Shown: one piece after another, positions 6,222-16,835 of the stretch
Position numbering within the stretch: position 1 is the first letter of the stretch
Layout: each line of letters opens with the position of its first letter
DNA from: Escherichia phage KarlSchell_Bas89
Strand: one strand, 5' to 3'
Length of the DNA stretch: 64,000 nucleotides
Sequence record: PQ850613.1
The notes under the pieces: generated by a model
Seen by the model: only the letters and a program-made list of their open reading frames with translations
Database searches by the model: none
Told to the model about the DNA's origin: nothing
Program-made: the position numbers and the translations under genes

Positions 6222-7253
6222 ATGGCATATGGAATTTGGGCACAACCTGTAGGGCCGGGGCCAGCTGCCCCTGCTCCTCTCTTTATAGATAGCGGGAGTA
6301 CTTTCCCTCAGATAAAGAACACCATAAGCGGCAGTTTCAACTTTAACGGCGGTGGGAGATCTTTCCCTATTAGTGGGTGGGATGGTTCAGGTCAGATTGT
6401 TATTGTCCCAACAGGATCTCTTTGTTGGCAATGGGAAGTTCCACCTAACCTAGTACCAGATGTTTATTGTGTAAACAATATCTACGTAGAGAACACCACA
6501 TCGTTTCGTGTCAACCTTAATCAGAACCCCGGAAGCAACCCTCTTTTCGATTGCGGTTTTAACGTTTACCAAATCTGGCCCAGAGCTGATAGGAACTACG
6601 GTATAACCTTTTCTAATACAGCGGATTACTTCTCTATCTCTGATGCTGGAGTTGTTGGTCAGTGTGTTTGGGCTTGGCAAGGAACAATAAACAATGCTTT
6701 ACAAATTCCAGATATCGGTGGATTCTATATGCCTAACGCTGTGGTTTTTGCTAACTGGTCTGATGGTGGTTTAGGTCTGTCTTACACTTCTGGTGACAGG
6801 GTTATACGTGTTTATCAAAACCGTCCATATATTAACGGAAACACTAACGAAGGCGGTTCTGTCTTTGCTAGAGTTGCTGTGTTTTGTAATGGTGCTGGAG
6901 TTCCTGAGCACAATGGTGGTTTGAATATTTACTCACCGGGAACTACACAGTGTGTGTTCTCGACAAATAGGACACCTTTTACCATCGACAATTTTATAGG
7001 TTCTGGTGGGGGTAACACTGGAATGGCTTACCCTATGATACCTCTTTCCTCTGGTATTGGGGCTATAAAGGGTCAAGGGAGTGGTTGGAGATATCAGCAG
7101 ATGAGATCTCATACAATGTCCGGTTCTAGTGTAGGAACGGGTTATGGGAGATATCTTTTCCAGTGGGATCAGAATTACGATTTAGGGTCTGATACTGTGG
7201 TCAATTTATCTATACCTGTAATTAATGCAGCTAAAGTTTTTGCTGGTTTATAA
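6222..7253 (+). CDS. hypothetical virion protein (Gly/Asn-rich)
   Basis: ORF with ATG overlapping upstream stop; composition typical of fibre/tip proteins. Confidence 0.45.
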   Translation: MAYGIWAQPVGPGPAAPAPLFIDSGSTFPQIKNTISGSFNFNGGGRSFPISGWDGSGQIVIVPTGSLCWQWEVPPNLVPDVYCVNNIYVENTTSFRVNLNQNPGSNPLFDCGFNVYQIWPRADRNYGITFSNTADYFSISDAGVVGQCVWAWQGTINNALQIPDIGGFYMPNAVVFANWSDGGLGLSYTSGDRVIRVYQNRPYINGNTNEGGSVFARVAVFCNGAGVPEHNGGLNIYSPGTTQCVFSTNRTPFTIDNFIGSGGGNTGMAYPMIPLSSGIGAIKGQGSGWRYQQMRSHTMSGSSVGTGYGRYLFQWDQNYDLGSDTVVNLSIPVINAAKVFAGL

Positions 7254-7265
7254 CAAGGAGAGATT

Positions 7266-8060
7266 ATGGATAAGATTTTAGGAGTTTCAGAACTAGACCC
7301 ACTGGTTCAACAAGCTGCTAAGAAGTATGGTATTCCTGCTGCTCTTGTTCATGCGGTTATTCAGAGGGAGTCTAGTGGCAAACCCTCTGCTGCTTCAGGA
7401 ACAGGTCCGGTAGGGTTAATGCAAATTAGTAAAGGCTTGGCTAAAGATTATGGTTACAAATTAGAAGATCGTCTAGACCCAGCTAAGAATATCGACATGG
7501 GTGCTAGGTATATCAGGGACAACTTAAAAGCTTTTAATGGCGATGTAAGAAAGGCAATGGTAGGTTATTCAGAAGGGACTGGTGGTGCTAAGCAAATGTT
7601 TGCTGGTAAGAGAGGGTTTACTCCTCAAGCATTAGATTCTATGAACAACAAACACTTCCTCCCTTTCTTCAACCCTAACGATGCAGCAAGACAGACAGCA
7701 AACCCTGTAGGAGCTTTACAGGAGGCTCAAGTGGCAGATCAATACAACCCATCAACAATAACTCGTGAGGGTGCTGCAAACGCTCCTACACAGGCTGAGG
7801 TGATGGCTAGTAAGACAGGTGCTCTTGGTGGGAAACCTGCTGAGTTCTACACTGAAGAAGTACAAGGTCAAGACCAACAAAGGCCTCAGAACTTTGGTAA
7901 TGCTGCTCTAGCTGCTGCTGCAATGTTAGCTGGTAAAGTTCCTAACTCACAGACTGTTCAAAGAGCGCATGCACCTACTGGAGCTTCCTCTAATTACAGT
8001 CCTCAAACTCAAGCGGTGCTCAGACGTTTAGCAAGCATCGGTACAGACATTTACAGGTAA
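7266..8060 (+). CDS. lytic transglycosylase (SLT domain), probably virion-associated
   Basis: IQRESSGKPSAAS...GLMQI matches the SLT catalytic E-S motif region. Confidence 0.7.
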   Translation: MDKILGVSELDPLVQQAAKKYGIPAALVHAVIQRESSGKPSAASGTGPVGLMQISKGLAKDYGYKLEDRLDPAKNIDMGARYIRDNLKAFNGDVRKAMVGYSEGTGGAKQMFAGKRGFTPQALDSMNNKHFLPFFNPNDAARQTANPVGALQEAQVADQYNPSTITREGAANAPTQAEVMASKTGALGGKPAEFYTEEVQGQDQQRPQNFGNAALAAAAMLAGKVPNSQTVQRAHAPTGASSNYSPQTQAVLRRLASIGTDIYR

Positions 8061-8069
8061 GGAGGTTCT

Positions 8070-9116
8070 ATGTCTCTCTTCGGTTCTTCGGCTAAATCTA
8101 AAGTTACAGTAGCGCCTTCTTCTCAAGTAGATGCTCTGTTACGTCAGATTGTTTCCAATGCTCAAGGAATGAATAACGGTCAATTTGTTGGTCGTGAAAT
8201 GGCAGGATTCAATCAGAATCAAAGTGCTGCGCTCTCAGGTTTGGCTAACTCTGATGTGCAGAAACAACTAGCTGCTCTTTATACCCCTCGTACTCAGCAA
8301 GGTTTAGACCAAATGAACACTCTGGCCCAGCGGTATCAGAGTATGGCAAACGGTGGTGGTGTTACTGGTCAAGCTGTTAATGATTACAGCAAAGCTCTTA
8401 ATAACTCAGCTCTTGCACAAGCAACAGGTAAAGCTGCTTCTAATGTATCACTTGGTAATGGCTCTGATTCTGGTTCACTCCGTCGTGCTAGTGCTCAAGG
8501 TGCTGCTCTGGCTAGTGCAAACACTAACCTCTCTCGTAGTATAGATGGTAAGAACATGGGGATTAATAACCTCCAGAACAATGAAGCTTTCCAACGTGGA
8601 ATCCTAGGTGCTCAGACAGGTCTAGCTGGTCAGAATCTTAATCTGGGTGCTCAAGGTGTTCAGGCTACTCAACAAGCTATTCAGAATCAGCTCTTGGCTG
8701 GCAATCTGCAACAACAGCAAGATCAGGCTCGAGCTAACCTTAATTGGGAGAATGCTATTGGTAATCAACAGTTCGGTTGGAATCAACTCAACAATCAGCT
8801 TAATGTACTTAACTCAGTAAGTCCTATGGCTGGGTACACAATCAAGAATGCACAGCCCGGTGTTAGCCAAGGACAGCAACTGCTTGGTGCAGGTATGACT
8901 GGACTAGGTATTGCAGGTCGCTTAGGTGCTTTCACTCCTAATACTCAAACTCAGAATGCTTGGAACTCTTACAATGCTTCTGGTGGACAATCCGGTATGG
9001 CTGGTCCTATGATTGGTGGGTCTAACCTTTCTAATCAACAGAGTCAAAACAACTGGCTATCTACCGCAGGTAATAATATTTTAGGTGGTGTTCTTGGAGC
9101 ATTCGGGGCTAACTAA
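8070..9116 (+). CDS. Q/N/G-rich low-complexity virion protein
   Basis: 348 aa rich in Gln/Asn/Gly/Ala; RBS AAGGAGG. Confidence 0.5.
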   Translation: MSLFGSSAKSKVTVAPSSQVDALLRQIVSNAQGMNNGQFVGREMAGFNQNQSAALSGLANSDVQKQLAALYTPRTQQGLDQMNTLAQRYQSMANGGGVTGQAVNDYSKALNNSALAQATGKAASNVSLGNGSDSGSLRRASAQGAALASANTNLSRSIDGKNMGINNLQNNEAFQRGILGAQTGLAGQNLNLGAQGVQATQQAIQNQLLAGNLQQQQDQARANLNWENAIGNQQFGWNQLNNQLNVLNSVSPMAGYTIKNAQPGVSQGQQLLGAGMTGLGIAGRLGAFTPNTQTQNAWNSYNASGGQSGMAGPMIGGSNLSNQQSQNNWLSTAGNNILGGVLGAFGAN

Positions 9117-9128
9117 GGAGAAAACTTT

Positions 9129-10097
9129 ATGGCTTTATTTGGCAGCGGGGGTGGTTCTACTACCTCCAAAATGACAAGACCTGACTACATTCAGAGTTAC
9201 ATTGATCAATTAGTTAATCAAGTAAACAACACTAGTTCAGGCGATTATGTTTATCGAGAGAACGTAGGATTTAATAACAACCAGAACCAAGCTCTTAATG
9301 ATCTTGCTCAATCTGGTGCCCTAGGTGCTCTCTCTTCTCAATATATGGATGCAGCTGGTCAAGGGTTAGGTTATATGGATAACGCCTACCAAGGCTTTAA
9401 TAACCTCTCAGGACAGGGGCCTATCTCAGCAGAACAGGTTGGTGCTCTTGCTGGTGAACTCTACGACGATTCCGCTGTACAAGCAGCTATCAATGCTAAC
9501 AATGAACAAACTCAACAGAGTCTGGCACGTCATGCTCTTCCTCAGCTGGCTCAGCAGTATGCTGGTCAACAAGGTTCTGGTGCTCGTATGGCTAAATCTT
9601 TTGCTCAGGGTGACGCTCTGAATCAGATGCAGAACACAGCAACCAATATTACTAATAGCGCTTATGACTCAGCTCTAGGACAAGCTCAGAACATCCTCTC
9701 TGGAAATAGACAGAACCAAGCAGCTGCTTTAAGTGGACTATCTAACATTGGTAGTAATATGGCTGGCTTAGGTCAACAAGGTGCTCAGCTATCACAACAG
9801 CAACTAGCTAATCAATGGGGTGCTGGTTTGCAGCAACAGCAACAGCAACAAGCTGGTTTGGATAATGCTTATCAGAATGCTCAGAACGCAGCTAATTGGG
9901 GATGGCAAGACATTAATAACCAACTAGGTGCAGCAGGTGTCCTCAATGGCGCTCTCGGAACAACTACAACTACTAAAACAACTGGAGGTGGTGGTGGTTT
10001 CCTTGGTGGAGCAGCAAGCGGTGCAGCAGCTGGTTCAGCGTTTGGCCCTTGGGGTGCATTAGCTGGCGGTGTTATTGGTGGCTTAGCCTCTACCTAA
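9129..10097 (+). CDS. Q/N/G-rich low-complexity virion protein (paralog-like of preceding gene)
   Basis: 322 aa, poly-Q stretch, Gly-rich C-terminus. Confidence 0.5.
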   Translation: MALFGSGGGSTTSKMTRPDYIQSYIDQLVNQVNNTSSGDYVYRENVGFNNNQNQALNDLAQSGALGALSSQYMDAAGQGLGYMDNAYQGFNNLSGQGPISAEQVGALAGELYDDSAVQAAINANNEQTQQSLARHALPQLAQQYAGQQGSGARMAKSFAQGDALNQMQNTATNITNSAYDSALGQAQNILSGNRQNQAAALSGLSNIGSNMAGLGQQGAQLSQQQLANQWGAGLQQQQQQQAGLDNAYQNAQNAANWGWQDINNQLGAAGVLNGALGTTTTTKTTGGGGGFLGGAASGAAAGSAFGPWGALAGGVIGGLAST

Positions 10098-10111
10098 CTA
10101 GGAGATTAATT

Positions 10112-11776
10112 ATGCAACAAACTTCATATGCGTACCTCCGTAGTCGAGACCCACGCAATCAGATTTATGGTGTAAATCAGGGAGGGGTGCAAGCCTCTCC
10201 TTATATTCCTCGTCCTGCTTACCCACAAGCAGATATGTCTGTTTATACCCGTCCTAGTATGGCTCCTGCTGGATTAGCTGGGCTGGTTTCTCAGGCTAAT
10301 GAAGATCAAGAAGCAATGCTTGGTCCAAACAAACAAGTTGTTCAGGGTGCTAACATCCAACCTGATATCCCCAACGAAACTCCTGTAGCAGCCTCTCAGT
10401 CAGCTTCTCCGTTTGTTAACGATGAAAGCATGGTTGCTGCTGGCCTTTCTCCAGAAACTGCTTCTCAAGAGTTCTCAGACCCTCTACCGGTAAGTGCTCC
10501 TCCTAAACCGTTGGAACCTACTGATACAGAGTTTACTCAAGACCAAGTTAAACAGGCACAACAGGTTATGTCAACCCTTTCTTCCGGTTTACCTGAAGCT
10601 GAAGGTATGGCAGGTGCTTCTCGTAGCGCTGACCAAGAACGTGTTAACAAAGATTTAATGGAAGTGGCTAAGGCTAAGAACCCGATGGAAGAGTGGGGTA
10701 AGTTACAGAAACAACCTTTCTATCAGAACTCTAGCTTCTATACAGGTTTGATGGGTGTAGGTCTTTCTATTATGTCAGGTAAGTCTCCTATTGAAGCTTT
10801 CCAGATTGGCTCTGGTATGGCTGCACAGGATGAAACTAAGAATCAGCTTGAAGCTAACCGTGAATCTCTGATTGAACAGGGTTATTCTCCAGACTCAGTT
10901 GCTGCTGCAATTGCTACTGGTGATCCTTCTGCTCTGAAGATGCGTCAGATTAGCCCTCAAGAGAAACTTGCTTTGTCTGCTATTGAAGATGAAAGAGCTA
11001 ACCGTGAATGGGACAGACGCCAACAGATTAGTGAACAGTCTATGAGTCGTAGGATGGATGCAACTCGCCAAGCTGCTGAACAACGTGTACAAGAACAGTT
11101 TGCTCGTCAGAAAGAGTTGATTGGGTATCGTGATCAAGTAAAAGCTGATCGTGCTGAGAAAGCTGCTCAGAGTTTTAATTTTAATCCGAAAGAAGTTCGT
11201 CTTGCTCAGAACACAGCTGAAGGTACAGTTGCTAAGCAGTGGGCAGAGAAAGGTGGTCTGTTTAACCAGTCTCATAAAGACTTGGATTTGGCAGATCAGG
11301 CAGTTAAAGATAAAGACTATCAGACAGCTCGTTCTGCTTACATGCAGGCTATCATGAACTCCGCAAGGGCTGAAATCGGTGCTACTCGTTCTCTGACCGA
11401 AGAAGACTTACGTCACTTTGCAGAAGACCCATCAATCTTTGTTAAGGTTGGTAATACTTGGTCTCTGAAAGGTGGGTATCGTCCTACTGATGCTGCTCTT
11501 GCTTATGCTCGTAAACAGGCAACCGTTGGTGCTACTTCAGCGATGAAGGGTGTTAAGGATGCTAAGAAAGCAACCATCGAAGCTTACGTTGGTTCTGGTA
11601 TGGATAAGAAACGTGCTACTGCACTTGTTAACCGTGCTATACCTTCTGGTGGTTTCTATGACCCATTAGGTACATTTGAATCACAAGCTGAGGAAGAGGT
11701 TGGTGGTGCTGCTACTAATCCACGTCTGAATGGTGCTCTTTCAGCTTCTGAAGACACTAGCTGGTTTACTCAATAA
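10112..11776 (+). CDS. hypothetical virion (internal/ejection?) protein
   Basis: ATG at 10112 with AGGAG upstream (track start 10049 probably too early); 555 aa. Confidence 0.5.
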   Translation: MQQTSYAYLRSRDPRNQIYGVNQGGVQASPYIPRPAYPQADMSVYTRPSMAPAGLAGLVSQANEDQEAMLGPNKQVVQGANIQPDIPNETPVAASQSASPFVNDESMVAAGLSPETASQEFSDPLPVSAPPKPLEPTDTEFTQDQVKQAQQVMSTLSSGLPEAEGMAGASRSADQERVNKDLMEVAKAKNPMEEWGKLQKQPFYQNSSFYTGLMGVGLSIMSGKSPIEAFQIGSGMAAQDETKNQLEANRESLIEQGYSPDSVAAAIATGDPSALKMRQISPQEKLALSAIEDERANREWDRRQQISEQSMSRRMDATRQAAEQRVQEQFARQKELIGYRDQVKADRAEKAAQSFNFNPKEVRLAQNTAEGTVAKQWAEKGGLFNQSHKDLDLADQAVKDKDYQTARSAYMQAIMNSARAEIGATRSLTEEDLRHFAEDPSIFVKVGNTWSLKGGYRPTDAALAYARKQATVGATSAMKGVKDAKKATIEAYVGSGMDKKRATALVNRAIPSGGFYDPLGTFESQAEEEVGGAATNPRLNGALSASEDTSWFTQ

Positions 11777-11796
11777 GACCTAAGTCCTGCCTTCTA

Positions 11797-11805
11797 TAAT
11801 GTATA
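11797..11805 (+). promoter_or_regulatory. TAATGTATA promoter-like element
   Basis: Exact 9-mer 37 nt upstream of the 11842 start codon; same 9-mer and spacing upstream of a minus-strand gene at 29201. Confidence 0.45.
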
Positions 11806-11841
11806 TAGGGGGTAGGACATTTTTATTTATAAGGAGACGTT

Positions 11842-14800
11842 ATGGCTAACATTAAATCTTGGGAAGAAGCATCGAAAAGCCCCAAGTATATGAATGCAAC
11901 TCCTGAGCAACAGGCTCAGTTGAGAGAGCAATACAAAGCGGCAGGTGGTACAATCCCTGAAGATAAGCCAGTACAACCACAACAAGAAGAGCGTGGCTTA
12001 GTTGGTGAGTTCGCTCAGGGCGTATCTAATGCTATCGAATCTGGTGGAGCTAATATTGCAGCTAGTACCGCTCGTGGTTTAGGTGGTCTGGTTGAAATGG
12101 GTGAGAACGTTCTCGGTTCCCAAACAAGCTATGGTAAAAGAATTCAAGATAACGCAAAACAAGTATTAGAAAAGCGTATGGCTGGTATCGAGGATGGCTT
12201 TGGTAAGACTGCTGGGCAGTATGCTGGAGTGGCTGCTGATATCGGTTTGACAGTTGCTAACCCTGCTTTGGCTGCTGGTGTTATTGCGGGACGTGAAGCA
12301 GGGCGTGCTTATGCAGACCAGACTCCAGAAGAGGGAGAAGATAAGTCAGTGTTAGATGCTGCTCTTGTTGGTGGTGCTAACTTTGCAGCTCAGAAGATTC
12401 TTCCGGGTTTCACAGGAACAGCTGAGTCTACTTTAGGTCGTATTGGTCAGAGTGCTGCTTCTAACGCAGTGGCTGGTGCTAAGGGTGGTGCTCTCGTAGG
12501 TGCTGCTGAAGCTCAGAATAAGTATGGTGATGACACTACACTTGCCAATGTACTAGAAGGTGCAATTGATGAAGGTGTTGCTGGTGCTGCTTACGGCGGT
12601 GCTATTGGTGGTGTTCATGGTGCGATCAGTCGTCCTAGTCCTCAAGTATTTGATAAGACTCCTGAGAACGTTAAGACTGATATCTCCGCTGAAGATGAAG
12701 CGATTCGTAATGCTAAAAATGCTGATGAACTCCGTGAAGCTTATTCTCAAGCTGATACTGCTAACACAGCTTCCGCTCTTAACCTGCTAGACCAGAATGA
12801 TTTCCGTATTACAGATGCCGTGGCTATGGATTCTCCTGCTGCTCAACGTATCCTTAATACAGACCAGACTCGTGCTGAGAAAGCTGCTTCCTCTCTTACA
12901 GAGCGTTCTAACATCCCAGGTCTCAATCCTCTTGCTTCTCCAAGTAAGGTTAAGGGTAAAGCTTTTGCAGATAACGAACATAACCAGAAGCAAGCTGTAG
13001 CAATGAAAGATGCAATGGCTGACTACACTAAAGACAACACCAAGGCTCTTAATGATGTTCTTGATAATCTAGACAGAGAGTTGAATGACCTTCGTGTCCG
13101 TGGTGACTTTACTGGTAGCGCTATTGACATTAAGAATCAGACTCGTAATGATCGTGATTTCATTGATGCTTACAAGAACTTCTACACTGAAGCAAACAGA
13201 TTCAAAGCTCGTGATGGTGAAGACTTTAATAACTTTGTAGAGAAAGCTACCGAGCTACAGAAACTTGCTGATAATGTTTCTCCAGAGATGAAGAAAGCTA
13301 TTGGTGGTTTGAAGAAACTGAAAGGTATGCCTGAAGGTTTCAACCCTATCCAAGATGCCTTTACTCTGAATAACACAGCTAAATTAATGAGTAACCAAGA
13401 CCGTGGTTGGACAACCCTGACAGATGATGGTTTCCGTGAAGCCTCTTCTCCAAGTTTTGTTATGAACACCCTTGGTGCTGCTAAGTATGCTCTGAACCGC
13501 TTCTCTTCAGAGAGGGCTAGGTCTCAACGTGCTCGACAGCAGGATTCAAACAGTGAAGCAATTCGCTCTTTGGCTCGTGGTGATTTAGAGGTTGCTCGTG
13601 CTCGAAGTGCAGCAGCAAAAGCACGCGAAGAAATGGAAGCCGAACCGGTTGTTGATGACGTTCAATTTAAGACGCAAGCTGATGACCAAAATCAGGCTGG
13701 TTCTGAACCCTCTTCTCCAGCTACTGTGACGGAAGATTTCTCTCCTTCTCCAGCTCCTTTAACTGCTCGTGATTTGGTTGCTCAAAGACGTGCTATTCGA
13801 CAGGCGGAACAACGCCGTGCAGAGGAGGAAGCACAAGCTGCTCAGAATGCTCCAGTTGAACCAGAAGCTCCAGCAGAAACTTTGCCTACGCGTAACCCTC
13901 TTGAGGAACGTAGAGTGCAAGAAGCTGAGATGGAACAACAGCGTGCAGCAGAAGAGGCTGCTAAAGCTCCTGAGACGTCCGTAGAAGAGCCTACAGCTAA
14001 AGCTGAGCCGTTACCTGCTCGTGCTCCTAAAGCTCCTAAGGAAGCTGCTCCTGAGGTTAAACCGGCTACTGGTGTAGAACGTCTTGCTGCTATGTCAACA
14101 GCTGCTCGTCAGGCTACTAAAAACCGTGCTGAACGTTTTGCTCGTTCTTTGTATACTGCTGGTGCTAAAGCCAAAGCTACTGCGGAAAACTTCTTGGCTT
14201 ATAAAGGAGACCCGAAAGAGCTGATGCGTCGTATCCGTCAGGAAGACCAAGCGAACAATGCTGCTCGTCATGAAGAGATGGCTCGTAACCAACTAGCTTC
14301 TCAGCAAGGTATTGCAGCTGCTAAATCTAACCGAGTTCGTTCTGCATTCTCCGATTGGGTTAAAGAGCGTGGATTACCTTCTGAAATCGCCTCTAAAGCC
14401 CTACGTGCTGAAGAACGTGGATTGGATGGTAACGTATCAAGCCTAGACTCTTTGAAGCGCAGAGCTGAGCGTATGTATCAGAAAGAGCGTGATGATGAGT
14501 TTGATAGGCTGTATCGTGAAGCTCTGGAAGAAAACAAAGCTTTTGATAAGAAAGATGCACCTAAGCTGAAAGATCAGAAGGCTGAGTTCCAGTCAGAGAT
14601 TGATTCTCTACTTGAGAACGAACCTCTCCGTCCTGCTCAGAAAGATGCAATGCGTAAGATGATGAGTGATTTTGTTGATGGGAAGTTTAAAGCGGCTGAG
14701 AAAGCTGGAAGGGAAGAAGCTTTAGAGGTTGGTCAAATGAAGGATTTGTGGGATGGGTTTATTAATACCTACAATCGTGAAGTTGGCATGTTCAATAAAG

Positions 14801-16263
14801 CTAACAAGAACTCTCAGTATGAGGCAGCAGCTAAACATCTACAGGCTCGTGAAGAGCGTCTTACCTCTTTACGTAACAGAGCAGAAGCTCGTGCTCAAGC
14901 GAAAGCTACAGCAGAAGCTGAACGTCAGTCACTCGAAGCTATTGCTGGTCAGAAGACTGAGATAGAGAAGATGTTTGATGAGTTACCTAAACCTGTCCGC
15001 GAGGCTCAGGAAAGCCGTACTCTGAAACAGCTTGCAGCTCACCACGATAAGAACTCCCCTGTTCCTCCAGAACGTTTCCGTAGTATTATCGAACGTATCC
15101 ATAACGCAGAGTCCGACTACCTTGATCGTAAGCGTCGTCTCACTGATGCAGAGGAAGATGCTCGTGAAGCTAAGTGGAACAAGATGTATGAACAAGCAGA
15201 GGAGATGAACCGTAAATTCGATATAGATGCTCGCGTGTCCCGTGATAAGAGCCTCAAAGAAGCTCAGGAGCGACAGAATGATCTCATGGCAGTACAACGC
15301 CAACGTGATGACATTCACAGCCGTCTGGTGCGTTCTATCGAAGATAAGGGCATCCCTAAAGCTGATGCTGAAGCATTTGCTGGTTCTTATATGGATAACC
15401 GTTATGCTCTTCTTGAAAAACCTATGACCCCTACCGAGCATCAGAATGCTCGTGCACGTATTGAGTCCGATGTAGAGAAGTTTGCTAAGAAGTATGAAAG
15501 CTTGTCTCCTATCGAGAAAGACGTGGTTAAGATTACTGGTGATGTGGAAGGTAAACTGGATGGGTTGGATGCTGAGACTATGAAGGCAGTTGAGGAAGCT
15601 AGGAAGGTTGACTCTGATATTAAGAAACTTCAGGATGAAGAGTTGGAAATGGAGAAAGTCCGTTCAGCTTTACCTGATGATGAAAAGTCTCAGGCAAATT
15701 CCGACATTCTGGAAAGCATTAAAAAGCAAGAAGATGAGTTTGCAGGAAAGGTTGAGAAGGCATTCTTGGAAGGCAAGGACTTGAAGGAATTGGCTAGTGT
15801 TGCAGAGGTTCTGGATAGGGTTCATGGTGCTGACAAGGCTGGGAACAACCGTAGATTTGTTCGTGCTCTACAGACTGCTGCTGACAACAAGAATAAGTAT
15901 GGTGATAATCCGGTAGCTTGGTTTAGTGCTGATGATTACTCTGCTATTGCTAAACTTGGTGCTGCATCAGCGGGCGGTAACAAATCGAGAGCGTTGGAGA
16001 AGATCTTTGGTTCTACAGCAGATCAAGCTAAGGCTAAGCTTTTGGGGAGAGATGATGTAGCGAAGATTAGACGTGTGATTGAAGCGAATCCTGAAGTCAA
16101 GATTCCTTCTTACAAGACTACTACTCGTCAAGAGTATTTACAGTTCTTGGAGAAGTATAATGATGAAGGAGTGTTGAAAGTCAAACGTGGTTCTCTGTCT
16201 GACAGATTAGAAAGGAATAAGCGTCAAGCTAAACTCCGTGTTAGAGTTCGCTCGAAAGAGTAA
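11842..16263 (+). CDS. large (1473 aa) coiled-coil-rich virion protein (internal core/ejection-type)
   Basis: Long ORF with RBS AAGGAG; A/E/K/R-rich helical composition; last gene of the plus-strand structural block. Confidence 0.55.
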   Translation: MANIKSWEEASKSPKYMNATPEQQAQLREQYKAAGGTIPEDKPVQPQQEERGLVGEFAQGVSNAIESGGANIAASTARGLGGLVEMGENVLGSQTSYGKRIQDNAKQVLEKRMAGIEDGFGKTAGQYAGVAADIGLTVANPALAAGVIAGREAGRAYADQTPEEGEDKSVLDAALVGGANFAAQKILPGFTGTAESTLGRIGQSAASNAVAGAKGGALVGAAEAQNKYGDDTTLANVLEGAIDEGVAGAAYGGAIGGVHGAISRPSPQVFDKTPENVKTDISAEDEAIRNAKNADELREAYSQADTANTASALNLLDQNDFRITDAVAMDSPAAQRILNTDQTRAEKAASSLTERSNIPGLNPLASPSKVKGKAFADNEHNQKQAVAMKDAMADYTKDNTKALNDVLDNLDRELNDLRVRGDFTGSAIDIKNQTRNDRDFIDAYKNFYTEANRFKARDGEDFNNFVEKATELQKLADNVSPEMKKAIGGLKKLKGMPEGFNPIQDAFTLNNTAKLMSNQDRGWTTLTDDGFREASSPSFVMNTLGAAKYALNRFSSERARSQRARQQDSNSEAIRSLARGDLEVARARSAAAKAREEMEAEPVVDDVQFKTQADDQNQAGSEPSSPATVTEDFSPSPAPLTARDLVAQRRAIRQAEQRRAEEEAQAAQNAPVEPEAPAETLPTRNPLEERRVQEAEMEQQRAAEEAAKAPETSVEEPTAKAEPLPARAPKAPKEAAPEVKPATGVERLAAMSTAARQATKNRAERFARSLYTAGAKAKATAENFLAYKGDPKELMRRIRQEDQANNAARHEEMARNQLASQQGIAAAKSNRVRSAFSDWVKERGLPSEIASKALRAEERGLDGNVSSLDSLKRRAERMYQKERDDEFDRLYREALEENKAFDKKDAPKLKDQKAEFQSEIDSLLENEPLRPAQKDAMRKMMSDFVDGKFKAAEKAGREEALEVGQMKDLWDGFINTYNREVGMFNKANKNSQYEAAAKHLQAREERLTSLRNRAEARAQAKATAEAERQSLEAIAGQKTEIEKMFDELPKPVREAQESRTLKQLAAHHDKNSPVPPERFRSIIERIHNAESDYLDRKRRLTDAEEDAREAKWNKMYEQAEEMNRKFDIDARVSRDKSLKEAQERQNDLMAVQRQRDDIHSRLVRSIEDKGIPKADAEAFAGSYMDNRYALLEKPMTPTEHQNARARIESDVEKFAKKYESLSPIEKDVVKITGDVEGKLDGLDAETMKAVEEARKVDSDIKKLQDEELEMEKVRSALPDDEKSQANSDILESIKKQEDEFAGKVEKAFLEGKDLKELASVAEVLDRVHGADKAGNNRRFVRALQTAADNKNKYGDNPVAWFSADDYSAIAKLGAASAGGNKSRALEKIFGSTADQAKAKLLGRDDVAKIRRVIEANPEVKIPSYKTTTRQEYLQFLEKYNDEGVLKVKRGSLSDRLERNKRQAKLRVRVRSKE

Positions 16264-16271
16264 ACAAGAAA

Positions 16272-16305
16272 AGCCCCAACCGAAAGGAAGGGGCTTTATT
16301 TTTAT
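16272..16305 (+). terminator. rho-independent terminator
   Basis: AGCCCC...GGGGCT hairpin followed by TTTATTTTTAT. Confidence 0.65.
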
Positions 16306-16331: not shown

Positions 16332-16835
16332 TCAATCTTTTTTAAACTCTCCATGATATTCCTCTCTTTTACTCTTAAGCCATCTATGTAAATATAAGAT
16401 ATCGTATGAAGATTTCGTGTAAGATTTACCTGATATGTAAATTCGAGCCTGGTAGTATCCCGGATTCTTTCCTCCATGAGAGTTGTCATGAATACCTTTA
16501 GGTAAAGAATCTCTTTTACTGCTCCAACCTCTAGTATTCCTAGCACTTTCCTTCGCATTACAAAGTCTAAGATTTTCTATTGTATTGTTGTCTAGGTTAT
16601 TATCTATGTGGTCTACTAAAAACCCTTCTGGGATAGGTCCATTATGGTACTCCCAAACCAACCGGTGAGCTTTAATTCTTCCAGAGTTTTTGGTGTTGAT
16701 TTCCCAATAACCTTTCTTGTTTTTCGTACCTACCACGCTTCCTATTTTTACAAAAGGGGCTGGTTTACTCTTCCAGAGAAATCCAGAAGGGGATTCAGAG
16801 GAGTATAGAAAATGGGTCCACTTTTCTTCACTCAT
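16332..16835 (-). CDS. HNH homing endonuclease
   Basis: AHRLVWEYHNGPIPEGFLVDHIDNNLDNNTIENLRLCNAKESARN. Confidence 0.8.
   Translation of the reverse strand: MSEEKWTHFLYSSESPSGFLWKSKPAPFVKIGSVVGTKNKKGYWEINTKNSGRIKAHRLVWEYHNGPIPEGFLVDHIDNNLDNNTIENLRLCNAKESARNTRGWSSKRDSLPKGIHDNSHGGKNPGYYQARIYISGKSYTKSSYDILYLHRWLKSKREEYHGEFKKD

Follow-up and report, generated by a model that had tools for sequence, protein, structure and literature searches.

A probable DNA-ejection cassette with two glutamine- and asparagine-rich paralogues in the podophage KarlSchell_Bas89

Introduction

To our knowledge, the trans-envelope conduit of a short-tailed phage has been resolved only for T7, P22 and N4-like phages. 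Several phages of the SU10 type are in therapeutic use. Here we analyse a 64,000-nt sequence of Escherichia phage KarlSchell_Bas89 (PQ850613.1; hereafter the window), and within it positions 8070–16263 together with the lytic transglycosylase (SLT) gene that precedes them. The region encodes two consecutive proteins of 348 and 322 aa that are rich in glutamine and asparagine (Q/N), referred to below as paralogues A and B, followed by proteins of 554 and 1473 aa. We consider it likely that these genes, carried by a podophage of the Gordonclarkvirinae, form a DNA-ejection cassette (also termed an ejectosome or internal virion protein cassette), the products of which would build a conduit across the host envelope.

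The closest described system is that of phage SU10. All five of its proteins gp20–gp24 were detected in purified virions by nano-liquid chromatography–tandem mass spectrometry with 40–73% coverage, the largest of them, gp24, being represented by 116 peptides (73% coverage), and a separate protein, gp8, serves as the scaffold (Mirzaei et al. 2014, PMC4281155). The same five proteins are missing from genome-release intermediates, from which the authors concluded that they are ejection proteins, and no density in the SU10 head was assignable to any of them (Siborova et al. 2022, PMC9509320). The SU10 studies gave gp21–gp24 neither individual roles nor structures.

More distant systems provide the functional framework. 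In both T7 (gp14, gp15 and gp16) and P22 (gp7, gp20 and gp16) the ejection proteins come in the order small, medium, large (Table 1 in the review by Swanson et al., PMC8954989). T7 possesses an ordered core stack and a portal without a barrel, whereas no core has been resolved in SU10-type phages (PMC9509320). In the Bruynoghevirus Pa223, mass spectrometry confirmed that gp56, gp54 and gp53 are virion proteins; they have been proposed to form an outer-membrane channel, a periplasmic tunnel and an inner-membrane complex, respectively; for gp56, transmembrane helices were predicted at residues 278–291 and 296–311 (MemBrain) and a hollow nonameric channel was modelled with AlphaFold3 (bioRxiv 10.1101/2025.06.11.659172). 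Around the portal of Pa223, gp54 is ordered; no comparable resolved density is seen in SU10.

Results

The cassette corresponds to SU10 genes 20–24

At the nucleotide level the region is 96.7% identical to that of Escherichia phage EP335 and 95.8% identical to that of KBNP1711 (both Gordonclarkvirinae, Nieuwekanaalvirus), and shares ∼79% identity with many Kuravirus phages, SU10, phiEco32 and ES17 among them. The genes are colinear with SU10 gp16–gp24 (69–92% identity at the amino acid level, BLASTP); over their full lengths, the SLT protein, A, B, the 554-aa protein and the 1473-aa protein are 79, 78, 82, 69 and 81% identical to SU10 gp20, gp21, gp22, gp23 and gp24. Protein lengths hardly differ (260/350/322/551/1473 aa in SU10 versus 264/348/322/554/1473 aa here), and the likeness extends to the flanking nozzle, needle and DUF6453 genes, to the closing terminator and to an identical hairpin between genes 23 and 24. 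SU10 is a Kuravirus, whereas KarlSchell_Bas89 is Nieuwekanaalvirus-like, with no functional difference apparent between the two.

Since all five colinear SU10 orthologues are present in virions and are lost with the genome, we regard the cassette products as very probably ejected internal virion proteins; by orthology with SU10, they would be carried in the virions of KarlSchell_Bas89 itself and would leave them upon genome release. The initial annotation, made from the nucleotide sequence alone, had likened the block to podovirus core or ejection proteins, a reading that the absence of these proteins from purified virions would have contradicted; the SU10 data support the reading, the orthologues having been found in virions by mass spectrometry. 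Moreover, both Q/N-rich genes of KBNP1711 are already annotated as 'DNA ejection protein' in RefSeq. The genes of the cassette are as follows.

7266–8060, + strand: putative ejected lytic transglycosylase (SLT), 264 aa, orthologue of SU10 gp20 (Pfam SLT, PHROG, BLASTP)
8070–9116, + strand: Q/N-rich paralogue A, 348 aa, net charge +7, orthologue of SU10 gp21 (phrog_4287, BLASTP)
9129–10097, + strand: Q/N-rich paralogue B, 322 aa, net charge −8, orthologue of SU10 gp22 (phrog_4287, BLASTP)
10112–11776, + strand: putative helical ejection protein, 554 aa, orthologue of SU10 gp23 (phrog_12130 over the full length, BLASTP, AlphaFold2)
11842–16263, + strand: putative A/E/K/R/D-rich ejection protein, 1473 aa, orthologue of SU10 gp24 (phrog_14629 over the full length, BLASTP)

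The five genes form an uninterrupted run on the + strand, with intergenic gaps of 9–14 nt among the first four and of 65 nt before the gene for the 1473-aa protein, and every one of them is preceded by a strong Shine-Dalgarno sequence 6–9 nt upstream. The open reading frames (ORFs) originally reported for the 348-, 322- and 1473-aa proteins stand with unchanged coordinates, while the third protein is 554 rather than 555 aa long. For this gene an in-frame upstream TTG at 10049 would yield 575 aa; the ATG at 10112 is favoured because it is preceded by a strong AGGAG. The possibility that the low-complexity ORFs are non-coding artefacts was rejected in view of the strong ribosome-binding sites, the conserved orthologues and the peptides detected in SU10.

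The transglycosylase placed ahead of the block in the initial annotation was likewise found: its product matches the Pfam SLT domain over aa 13–114 (E = 4.4e-25) and phrog_12507 'transglycosylase' (E = 1e-157), and shares 36.5% identity with the SLT domain at the N-terminus of T7 gp16 (aa 10–113; E = 4e-14).

Paralogues A and B belong to a large family of Q/N-rich proteins

Glutamine and asparagine together make up 25.9% of A and 23.9% of B; the median for the 42 ORFs of the window with 150 aa or more is 9.4%, and the highest value after those of A and B is 16%. Over 80 aa the Q+N density peaks at 44% in A and 41% in B. The two proteins are dominated by Gly, Ala, Gln and Asn (52.5% and 55.2%, respectively) and contain poly-Q runs (Q4 at aa 214 of A; Q3 at aa 223 and Q7 at aa 235 of B), which bears out the composition described initially. 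Charged residues (D, E, K, R) account for only 7.8% of A and 7.5% of B, as compared with 19–33% in the neighbouring proteins, and neither protein contains a cysteine.

Both proteins match phrog_4287 'DNA ejection protein' (E = 2.7e-102 for A and 2.2e-98 for B). They are 30% identical to each other over 272 aa (E = 1e-8) and have in common an N-terminal MxLFG motif and W/N motifs; judged by their sequences, they are paralogues. An alignment of 33 sequences including 31 homologues of the Q/N-rich proteins (alignment A1) was used as a HMMER profile against 1.84 billion representative proteins and retrieved 3247 clusters at E ≤ 1e-3, of which 521 at E ≤ 1e-10. The family members are mostly 300–430 aa long, are matched over their full length and display conserved W/Y/N positions. 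No Pfam model (scan to E ≤ 10) and no NCBIfam model was found for the family. In a tblastn search of 50,697 phage records with a Q/N-rich protein and the N-terminus of the 1473-aa protein, only 98 records, all of Gordonclarkvirinae, were matched.

Among the 146 best diverged family representatives the Q+N content has a median of 18.4%, a 10th–90th percentile range of 13–24% and a maximum of 29.4%, values that may be raised by a Q/N-rich profile favouring the recovery of Q/N-rich members. The content originally considered extreme and unusual is thus exceptional with respect to the other ORFs of the window; with respect to the protein family it is not. The values of A and B lie near the top of the family range without being outliers, because a high Q/N content is a family trait.

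In one distant family member included in A1, the metagenomic protein P0047 (391 aa), the C-terminus is extended (..GVLAQEVAKRDPEAVV..), and the extension is similar to the end of a tail-fibre ORF at positions 86–517 of the window (..GFIAQDVEKDFPEAVS..); the end of that ORF looks like a terminus of the intramolecular-chaperone type.

A glycine zipper at the C-terminus is shared with P22 gp7

In alignment A1 conservation is strongest at the C-terminus of the proteins of the 322-aa type, ..TTTSGGGGGxLGGAMSGAAAGSAFGPWGALAGGVIGG, in which G294, G298, A299, G302, P307, G309, A312, G313 and G317 (numbering of B) are at least 90% conserved. The corresponding feature is:

9978–10094, + strand: glycine-zipper C-terminal segment of paralogue B, aa 284–322, TTGGGGGFLGGAASGAAAGSAFGPWGALAGGVIGGLAST (alignment; hhalign against P22 gp7)

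These 39 residues include neither a charged residue nor Gln or Asn and contain five overlapping small-xxx-small zippers. Paralogue A displays a weaker counterpart, a Gly-rich hydrophobic segment at aa 271–289 (nt 8880–8936), and ends in ILGGVLGAFGAN. For the family as a whole, the median G+A+S content of the 45 C-terminal residues is 47%, and in a simple Kyte-Doolittle scan of the Q/N-rich proteins windows scoring at least 1.0 occurred only in the C-terminal Gly-rich segment(s).

The gp7, gp20 and gp16 genes of P22 encode a small, a medium and a large protein and follow the needle gene, as do the genes here. P22 gp7 also resembles the Q/N-rich proteins of the window in composition (Q+N 17.9%, QNGAS 57.6%, no cysteine, low charge) and in possessing a glycine zipper with the PWGA motif (..GGGASGAIAGAGLAKLIGSSTPWGAAIGGGIGLLGSLF). 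It differs from them in being shorter (229 aa) and single-copy, and the P22 cassette includes no SLT ejection protein. Profile–profile comparison of the Q/N family with the P22 gp7 family by hhalign aligned 33 C-terminal columns only (probability 85%, E = 5.9e-6, 52% identity). Among the Pfam models for the P22 proteins are PF25688 (P22_gp7) and PF16928 (Inj_translocase); the window proteins did not match PF25688 even at E ≤ 10, and the expanded family hidden Markov model (HMM) scored 1.5 bits against P22 gp7 with a bias of 66.5, which is insignificant after bias correction. Because the similarity is confined to 33 columns, with the HMMER score insignificant and PF25688 unmatched, we treat the zipper as a shared module and not as proof of full-length homology. 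A literature search combining 'glycine zipper' with 'ejection protein' yielded no match.

The Q/N-rich family includes LUZ24 gp53

A full-length relationship was found in the Bruynoghevirus LUZ24. Its gp53 scored 44.5 bits against the A1 profile, whereas the maximum among 2000 block-shuffled copies was 13.3 bits; against the expanded family profile it scored 99.5 bits (E = 2e-31, positions 27–311), and against phrog_4287 it gave E = 2e-10. By these profile scores LUZ24 gp53 is a member of the Q/N-rich family. It has a Q+N content of 16.3% and a Gly-rich C-terminus, and it was the only protein matched when the family profile was run (HMMER) against P22 gp7, gp20 and gp16, T7 gp14, gp15 and gp16 and LUZ24 gp50, gp51 and gp53.

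The gene order and the size classes of LUZ24 agree with those of the window: the tail hub and needle genes are followed by gp53 (313 aa), gp51 (505 aa) and gp50 (1055 aa), and the tail hub proteins are themselves homologous (w_1006 of the window versus LUZ24 gp56, E = 1e-31). LUZ24 differs in that it has a single Q/N-rich copy and lacks a separate SLT gene at the corresponding place, and no sequence similarity was detected between the 554- and 1473-aa proteins and LUZ24 gp51 and gp50. The transmembrane helices predicted for Pa223 gp56 lie near the C-terminus, where the Gly-rich segment of the Q/N family falls.

Taken by size, the order of the cassette (348 and 322, 554 and 1473 aa after the nozzle, needle and SLT genes) matches that of the ejection proteins of T7, of P22 and of Pa223 (gp56, gp54 and gp53). 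With T7 the cassette has in common the logic of three size classes plus a delivered lytic transglycosylase; in T7, however, the SLT domain is fused to gp16, whereas in the window it is a separate 264-aa protein, and the small component is duplicated in the window.

Two paralogues of opposite charge are retained in eight lineages

The organisation of the cassette was compared in eight lineages, namely the window and contigs on which diverged homologues of the 322-aa protein are encoded (L003, L007, L009, L010, L011, L012 and L013). All eight possess the same five-gene order, down to 26–37% identity, beside SU10-type capsid, portal, nozzle and needle genes.

Position 1: SLT protein, 260–297 aa across lineages
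Position 2: paralogue A, 331–364 aa across lineages
Position 3: paralogue B, 312–328 aa across lineages
Position 4: mid-size helical protein, 495–613 aa across lineages
Position 5: giant protein, 781–1620 aa across lineages

A single cysteine occurs in the 40 cassette proteins, compared with nine in the neighbouring nozzle protein and six in the DUF6453 protein. Across the lineages A and B are each closer to their own type than to the other, and the duplication that gave rise to them is therefore old. In the distant relatives L008 and LUZ24 there is a single copy, which is B-like (net negative, zipper present). The net charge of A is positive (+2 to +12) and that of B negative (−4 to −12) in 8/8 lineages, net positive members making up only 22% of 134 representatives of the Q/N family. 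These opposite charges hint that A and B might act as an A:B heteromer, an idea that we put forward tentatively and would not yet bet on.

The alternative that survives best, though we hold it to be unlikely, is that A and B are redundant or serve as alternatives for different hosts or envelope types, each forming a homo-oligomeric pore like those of gp14 and gp7. T7 gp14, DEV gp73 and the Pa223 gp56 model are all homo-oligomers, and LUZ24 and L008 manage with one copy; yet both copies are kept in the same order throughout the eight lineages, with diverged C-termini and opposite net charges, and the orthologues of A and B were detected together in SU10 virions.

A less probable alternative still is that the Q/N-rich proteins are ejected cargo or packing material (a filler, a lubricant, a buffer of DNA pressure or a portal plug), the conduit being built by the nozzle together with the 554- and 1473-aa proteins. 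The scarcity of charged residues and the low-complexity Q/N/G/A composition would suit a flexible filler, as would the lack of ordered density for SU10 gp20–gp24 and of a confident fold in the AlphaFold2 monomer of B, and one report on P22 (PMC8402733) states that the P22 ejection proteins take up space that DNA fills when they are absent. Conservation of the Gly zipper and of W/Y/N positions over thousands of clusters points instead to a defined fold or assembly, the prediction for the homologue Pa223 gp56 is a hollow nonameric channel, and a filler does not readily account for two paralogues of opposite charge being retained down to 26–37% identity.

Several features of the relatives were observed in passing. 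In the metagenomic relatives L011 (6610–6999) and L012 (6554–7000) an Endonuclease_7 gene, homing-endonuclease-like, lies exactly between the two Q/N-rich paralogues. In L009 a complete SU10-type capsid, portal and ejection cassette occupies positions 204317–225285 of a 389,554-bp contig (DAHCAP010000002.1) that belongs to the E. coli assembly GCA_023211535.1, and homologues are also named from Enterobacter assemblies. The group, though regarded as strictly lytic, may thus have relatives that are prophage-like or associated with cells in some other way.

The 554-aa and 1473-aa proteins

The AlphaFold2 model of the 554-aa protein is of moderate confidence (mean predicted local distance difference test score, pLDDT, 68.6), with aa 1–140 disordered and aa 140–530 helical, including a 72-residue helix at 282–353. 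An invariant core at aa 189–277 (PFYQNSSFYTGLMGVGLSIMSGKSPIEAFQIGSG...) contains the hydrophobic Gly-rich stretch FYTGLMGVGLSIMSG. When the model was compared with BFVD using Foldseek, counterparts were found in Cronobacter GAP52, Aeromonas 4_4572 and Proteus Privateer ('virion-associated protein'), which are related prolate podophages only; against the PDB, Foldseek returned generic helical bundles only (best E = 0.085). A near-invariant motif, LIDQGYSxDSVAAAIAxGDPSLLKM (aa 255–281), gave a weak match (E = 0.09) to aa 408–434, in the C-terminal part, of the portal in PDB entry 9lw9, which is probably due to chance.

The 1473-aa protein is A/E/K/R-rich as originally described (A+E+K+R 40.8%; charged residues 32.8%). 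Its description as a coiled-coil protein found no support in a home-made heptad score, a crude and weak test: 5% of residues exceeded the 99th percentile of shuffles, the stretches above that level lying at aa 103–137 and 987–1020. The part conserved in distant relatives comprises the N-terminal ∼350 aa (nt 11842–12891; 26% identity to the L007 protein, E = 2.5e-18), the remainder being highly charged and fast-evolving. Within this N-terminal region are Gly/Ala-rich hydrophobic segments at aa 130–148 and 169–187 as well as small-xxx-small zippers with starts at aa 142, 205, 241 and 245, of which the last extends to aa 261. The protein has no Pfam, NCBIfam or PDB match, and a profile of its N-terminal region retrieved nothing when compared with T7 gp16, P22 gp16, LUZ24 gp50 and L008_1508. 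The database names 'TolA', 'erythrocyte binding protein 1' and 'nuclear pore complex' borne by orthologues of the protein are misleading, being artefacts of low complexity.

That the 1473-aa protein might instead determine the length of, or act as a scaffold for, the long C3 prolate head, or be a tape-measure-like ruler of a tail extension, is suggested by its great length, its charge and probably helical nature, by the variation in the length of the giant protein among relatives and by the lack of detectable similarity to T7 gp16, P22 gp16 and LUZ24 gp50, but is very improbable, given that SU10 gp24 is released with the genome, that SU10 has its separate scaffold, that the Gly/Ala-rich N-terminal region rather than length is conserved, and that the last gene encoding the largest protein is a position typical of the gp16 class.

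A conserved hairpin precedes the gene for the giant protein

Two RNA structures were located, one within the cassette and one at its end.

11784–11828, + strand: hairpin followed by ATTTTTATTT, candidate attenuating terminator (terminator scan, RNA folding)
16270–16305: bidirectional intrinsic terminator at the end of the virion module (stem AAAGCCCC..GGGGCTTT, free energy (dG) −17.5)

The hairpin lies in the 65-nt gap between the genes for the 554-aa and 1473-aa proteins and has a 15-bp stem with a dG of −22.8 kcal/mol. It is identical in SU10, KBNP1711 and Bas90, and the changes seen in L010 are compensated ones. At the equivalent site L011 (9726–9773), L013 (5863–5908), L007 (13121–13171) and L009 (12480–12533) each have a hairpin that is unrelated in sequence and has a T-tract behind it, and there is a counterpart in L003 at 15608–15674; none was found at the position preceding the giant gene in L012. 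Conservation of the structure without that of the sequence suggests that the hairpin may be a functional partial terminator, which would set the stoichiometry of the subunits. In T7 the gp16-class proteins are present in low copy number, which is consistent with attenuated expression of the giant gene (PMC8954989).

The stem of the closing terminator is flanked by A and T tracts, a terminator is annotated at the equivalent place in SU10, and the genes beyond it are encoded on the opposite strand. Directly past it, on the − strand, is an ORF for an HNH-type endonuclease-like protein (167 aa, 16332–16835); an HNH endonuclease is annotated in the corresponding neighbourhood of KBNP1711. On the other side of the cassette, a gene for a 343-aa DUF6453 protein (6222–7253), labelled 'membrane protein' in PHROG, lies between the tail-needle and SLT genes. 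The protein contains six cysteines and is 92% identical to SU10 gp19, which according to the SU10 supplementary table was undetected in virions.

Discussion

The cassette described here is already known as encoding the ejection proteins of SU10/phiEco32-type phages and does not represent a new kind of system. Reading it as an ejection cassette that builds an envelope conduit, which we consider likely, the course of infection would be as follows. The five proteins would be packaged with the DNA inside the prolate head; after formation of the nozzle and detachment of the needle they would exit via the portal–tail channel and extend it across the envelope, with the SLT protein cutting the peptidoglycan. 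Paralogues A and B, possibly acting as a heteromer, would represent the component of the gp14/gp7 class nearest to the outer membrane, with membrane insertion by their Gly-zipper C-termini and with their polar Q/N helices lining or bundling the conduit. The 554-aa protein, gp15/gp20-like by position, would contribute to a periplasmic tunnel, and the 1473-aa protein would be of the gp16 class and form the inner-membrane and cytoplasmic end, with its conserved N-terminal region, rich in Gly and Ala, as the anchor. The hairpin would lower the expression of the latter protein relative to that of the smaller subunits. The assignment of these individual roles follows from position, size class, composition and the homology of the Q/N-rich proteins to a putative Bruynoghevirus channel, and we give it about even chances of being correct.

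A number of observations weigh against this model. The 348-, 322-, 554- and 1473-aa proteins displayed no similarity to T7 gp14, gp15 and gp16 in BLAST, HMM, PDB and Foldseek searches, and none over the full length to P22 gp7, gp20 and gp16, the 33-column zipper of B being the only match. Sequence searches and profile searches (A1 and a second alignment, A2) of the PDB yielded nothing meaningful for the four proteins; the database should include any deposited chains of DEV gp72 and gp73 and Pa223 gp54, which were not tested by name. LUZ24 gp53, gp51 and gp50 are regarded as the counterparts of gp56, gp54 and gp53 of the closely related Pa223, which are of equal length, on account of genus, length and gene order rather than sequence comparison, and the outer-membrane role of Pa223 gp56 is itself a prediction (bioRxiv 10.1101/2025.06.11.659172). 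In 19-residue Kyte-Doolittle windows the Q/N-rich proteins contain no classical transmembrane helix (maxima 1.07 and 1.13), and paralogue A is devoid of the canonical GPWGA zipper. The AlphaFold2 monomer of B, built from the 33-sequence alignment, is all-helical and of low confidence (pLDDT 41.6). The charge pattern was observed in eight related lineages, which are not independent of one another. As to the location of the proteins after ejection, the SU10 study resolved no density for gp20–gp24 (PMC9509320).

A more speculative scenario, which we consider possible but rather doubtful, is that in these phages the small outer-membrane component was duplicated into an obligate, charge-complementary pair (A, net positive and with a divergent C-terminus, and B, net negative and with the ancestral glycine zipper) that co-assembles after ejection via Q/N 'polar-zipper' helices, and that the zipper/PWGA terminus is an ancient module. 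If true, a hetero-oligomeric A:B channel would differ from the homo-oligomeric pores of gp14, gp7 and gp73, and the zipper/PWGA terminus would be an ancient membrane-insertion module common to the P22-, LUZ24- and phiEco32-like ejection proteins.

What is new here is the link between a Q/N-rich family devoid of a Pfam model and LUZ24 gp53/Pa223 gp56, the zipper in common with P22 gp7, the pair of paralogues with opposite charges, and the structure-conserved hairpin ahead of the giant gene. These four observations offer structural studies of SU10-type phages concrete points to test.

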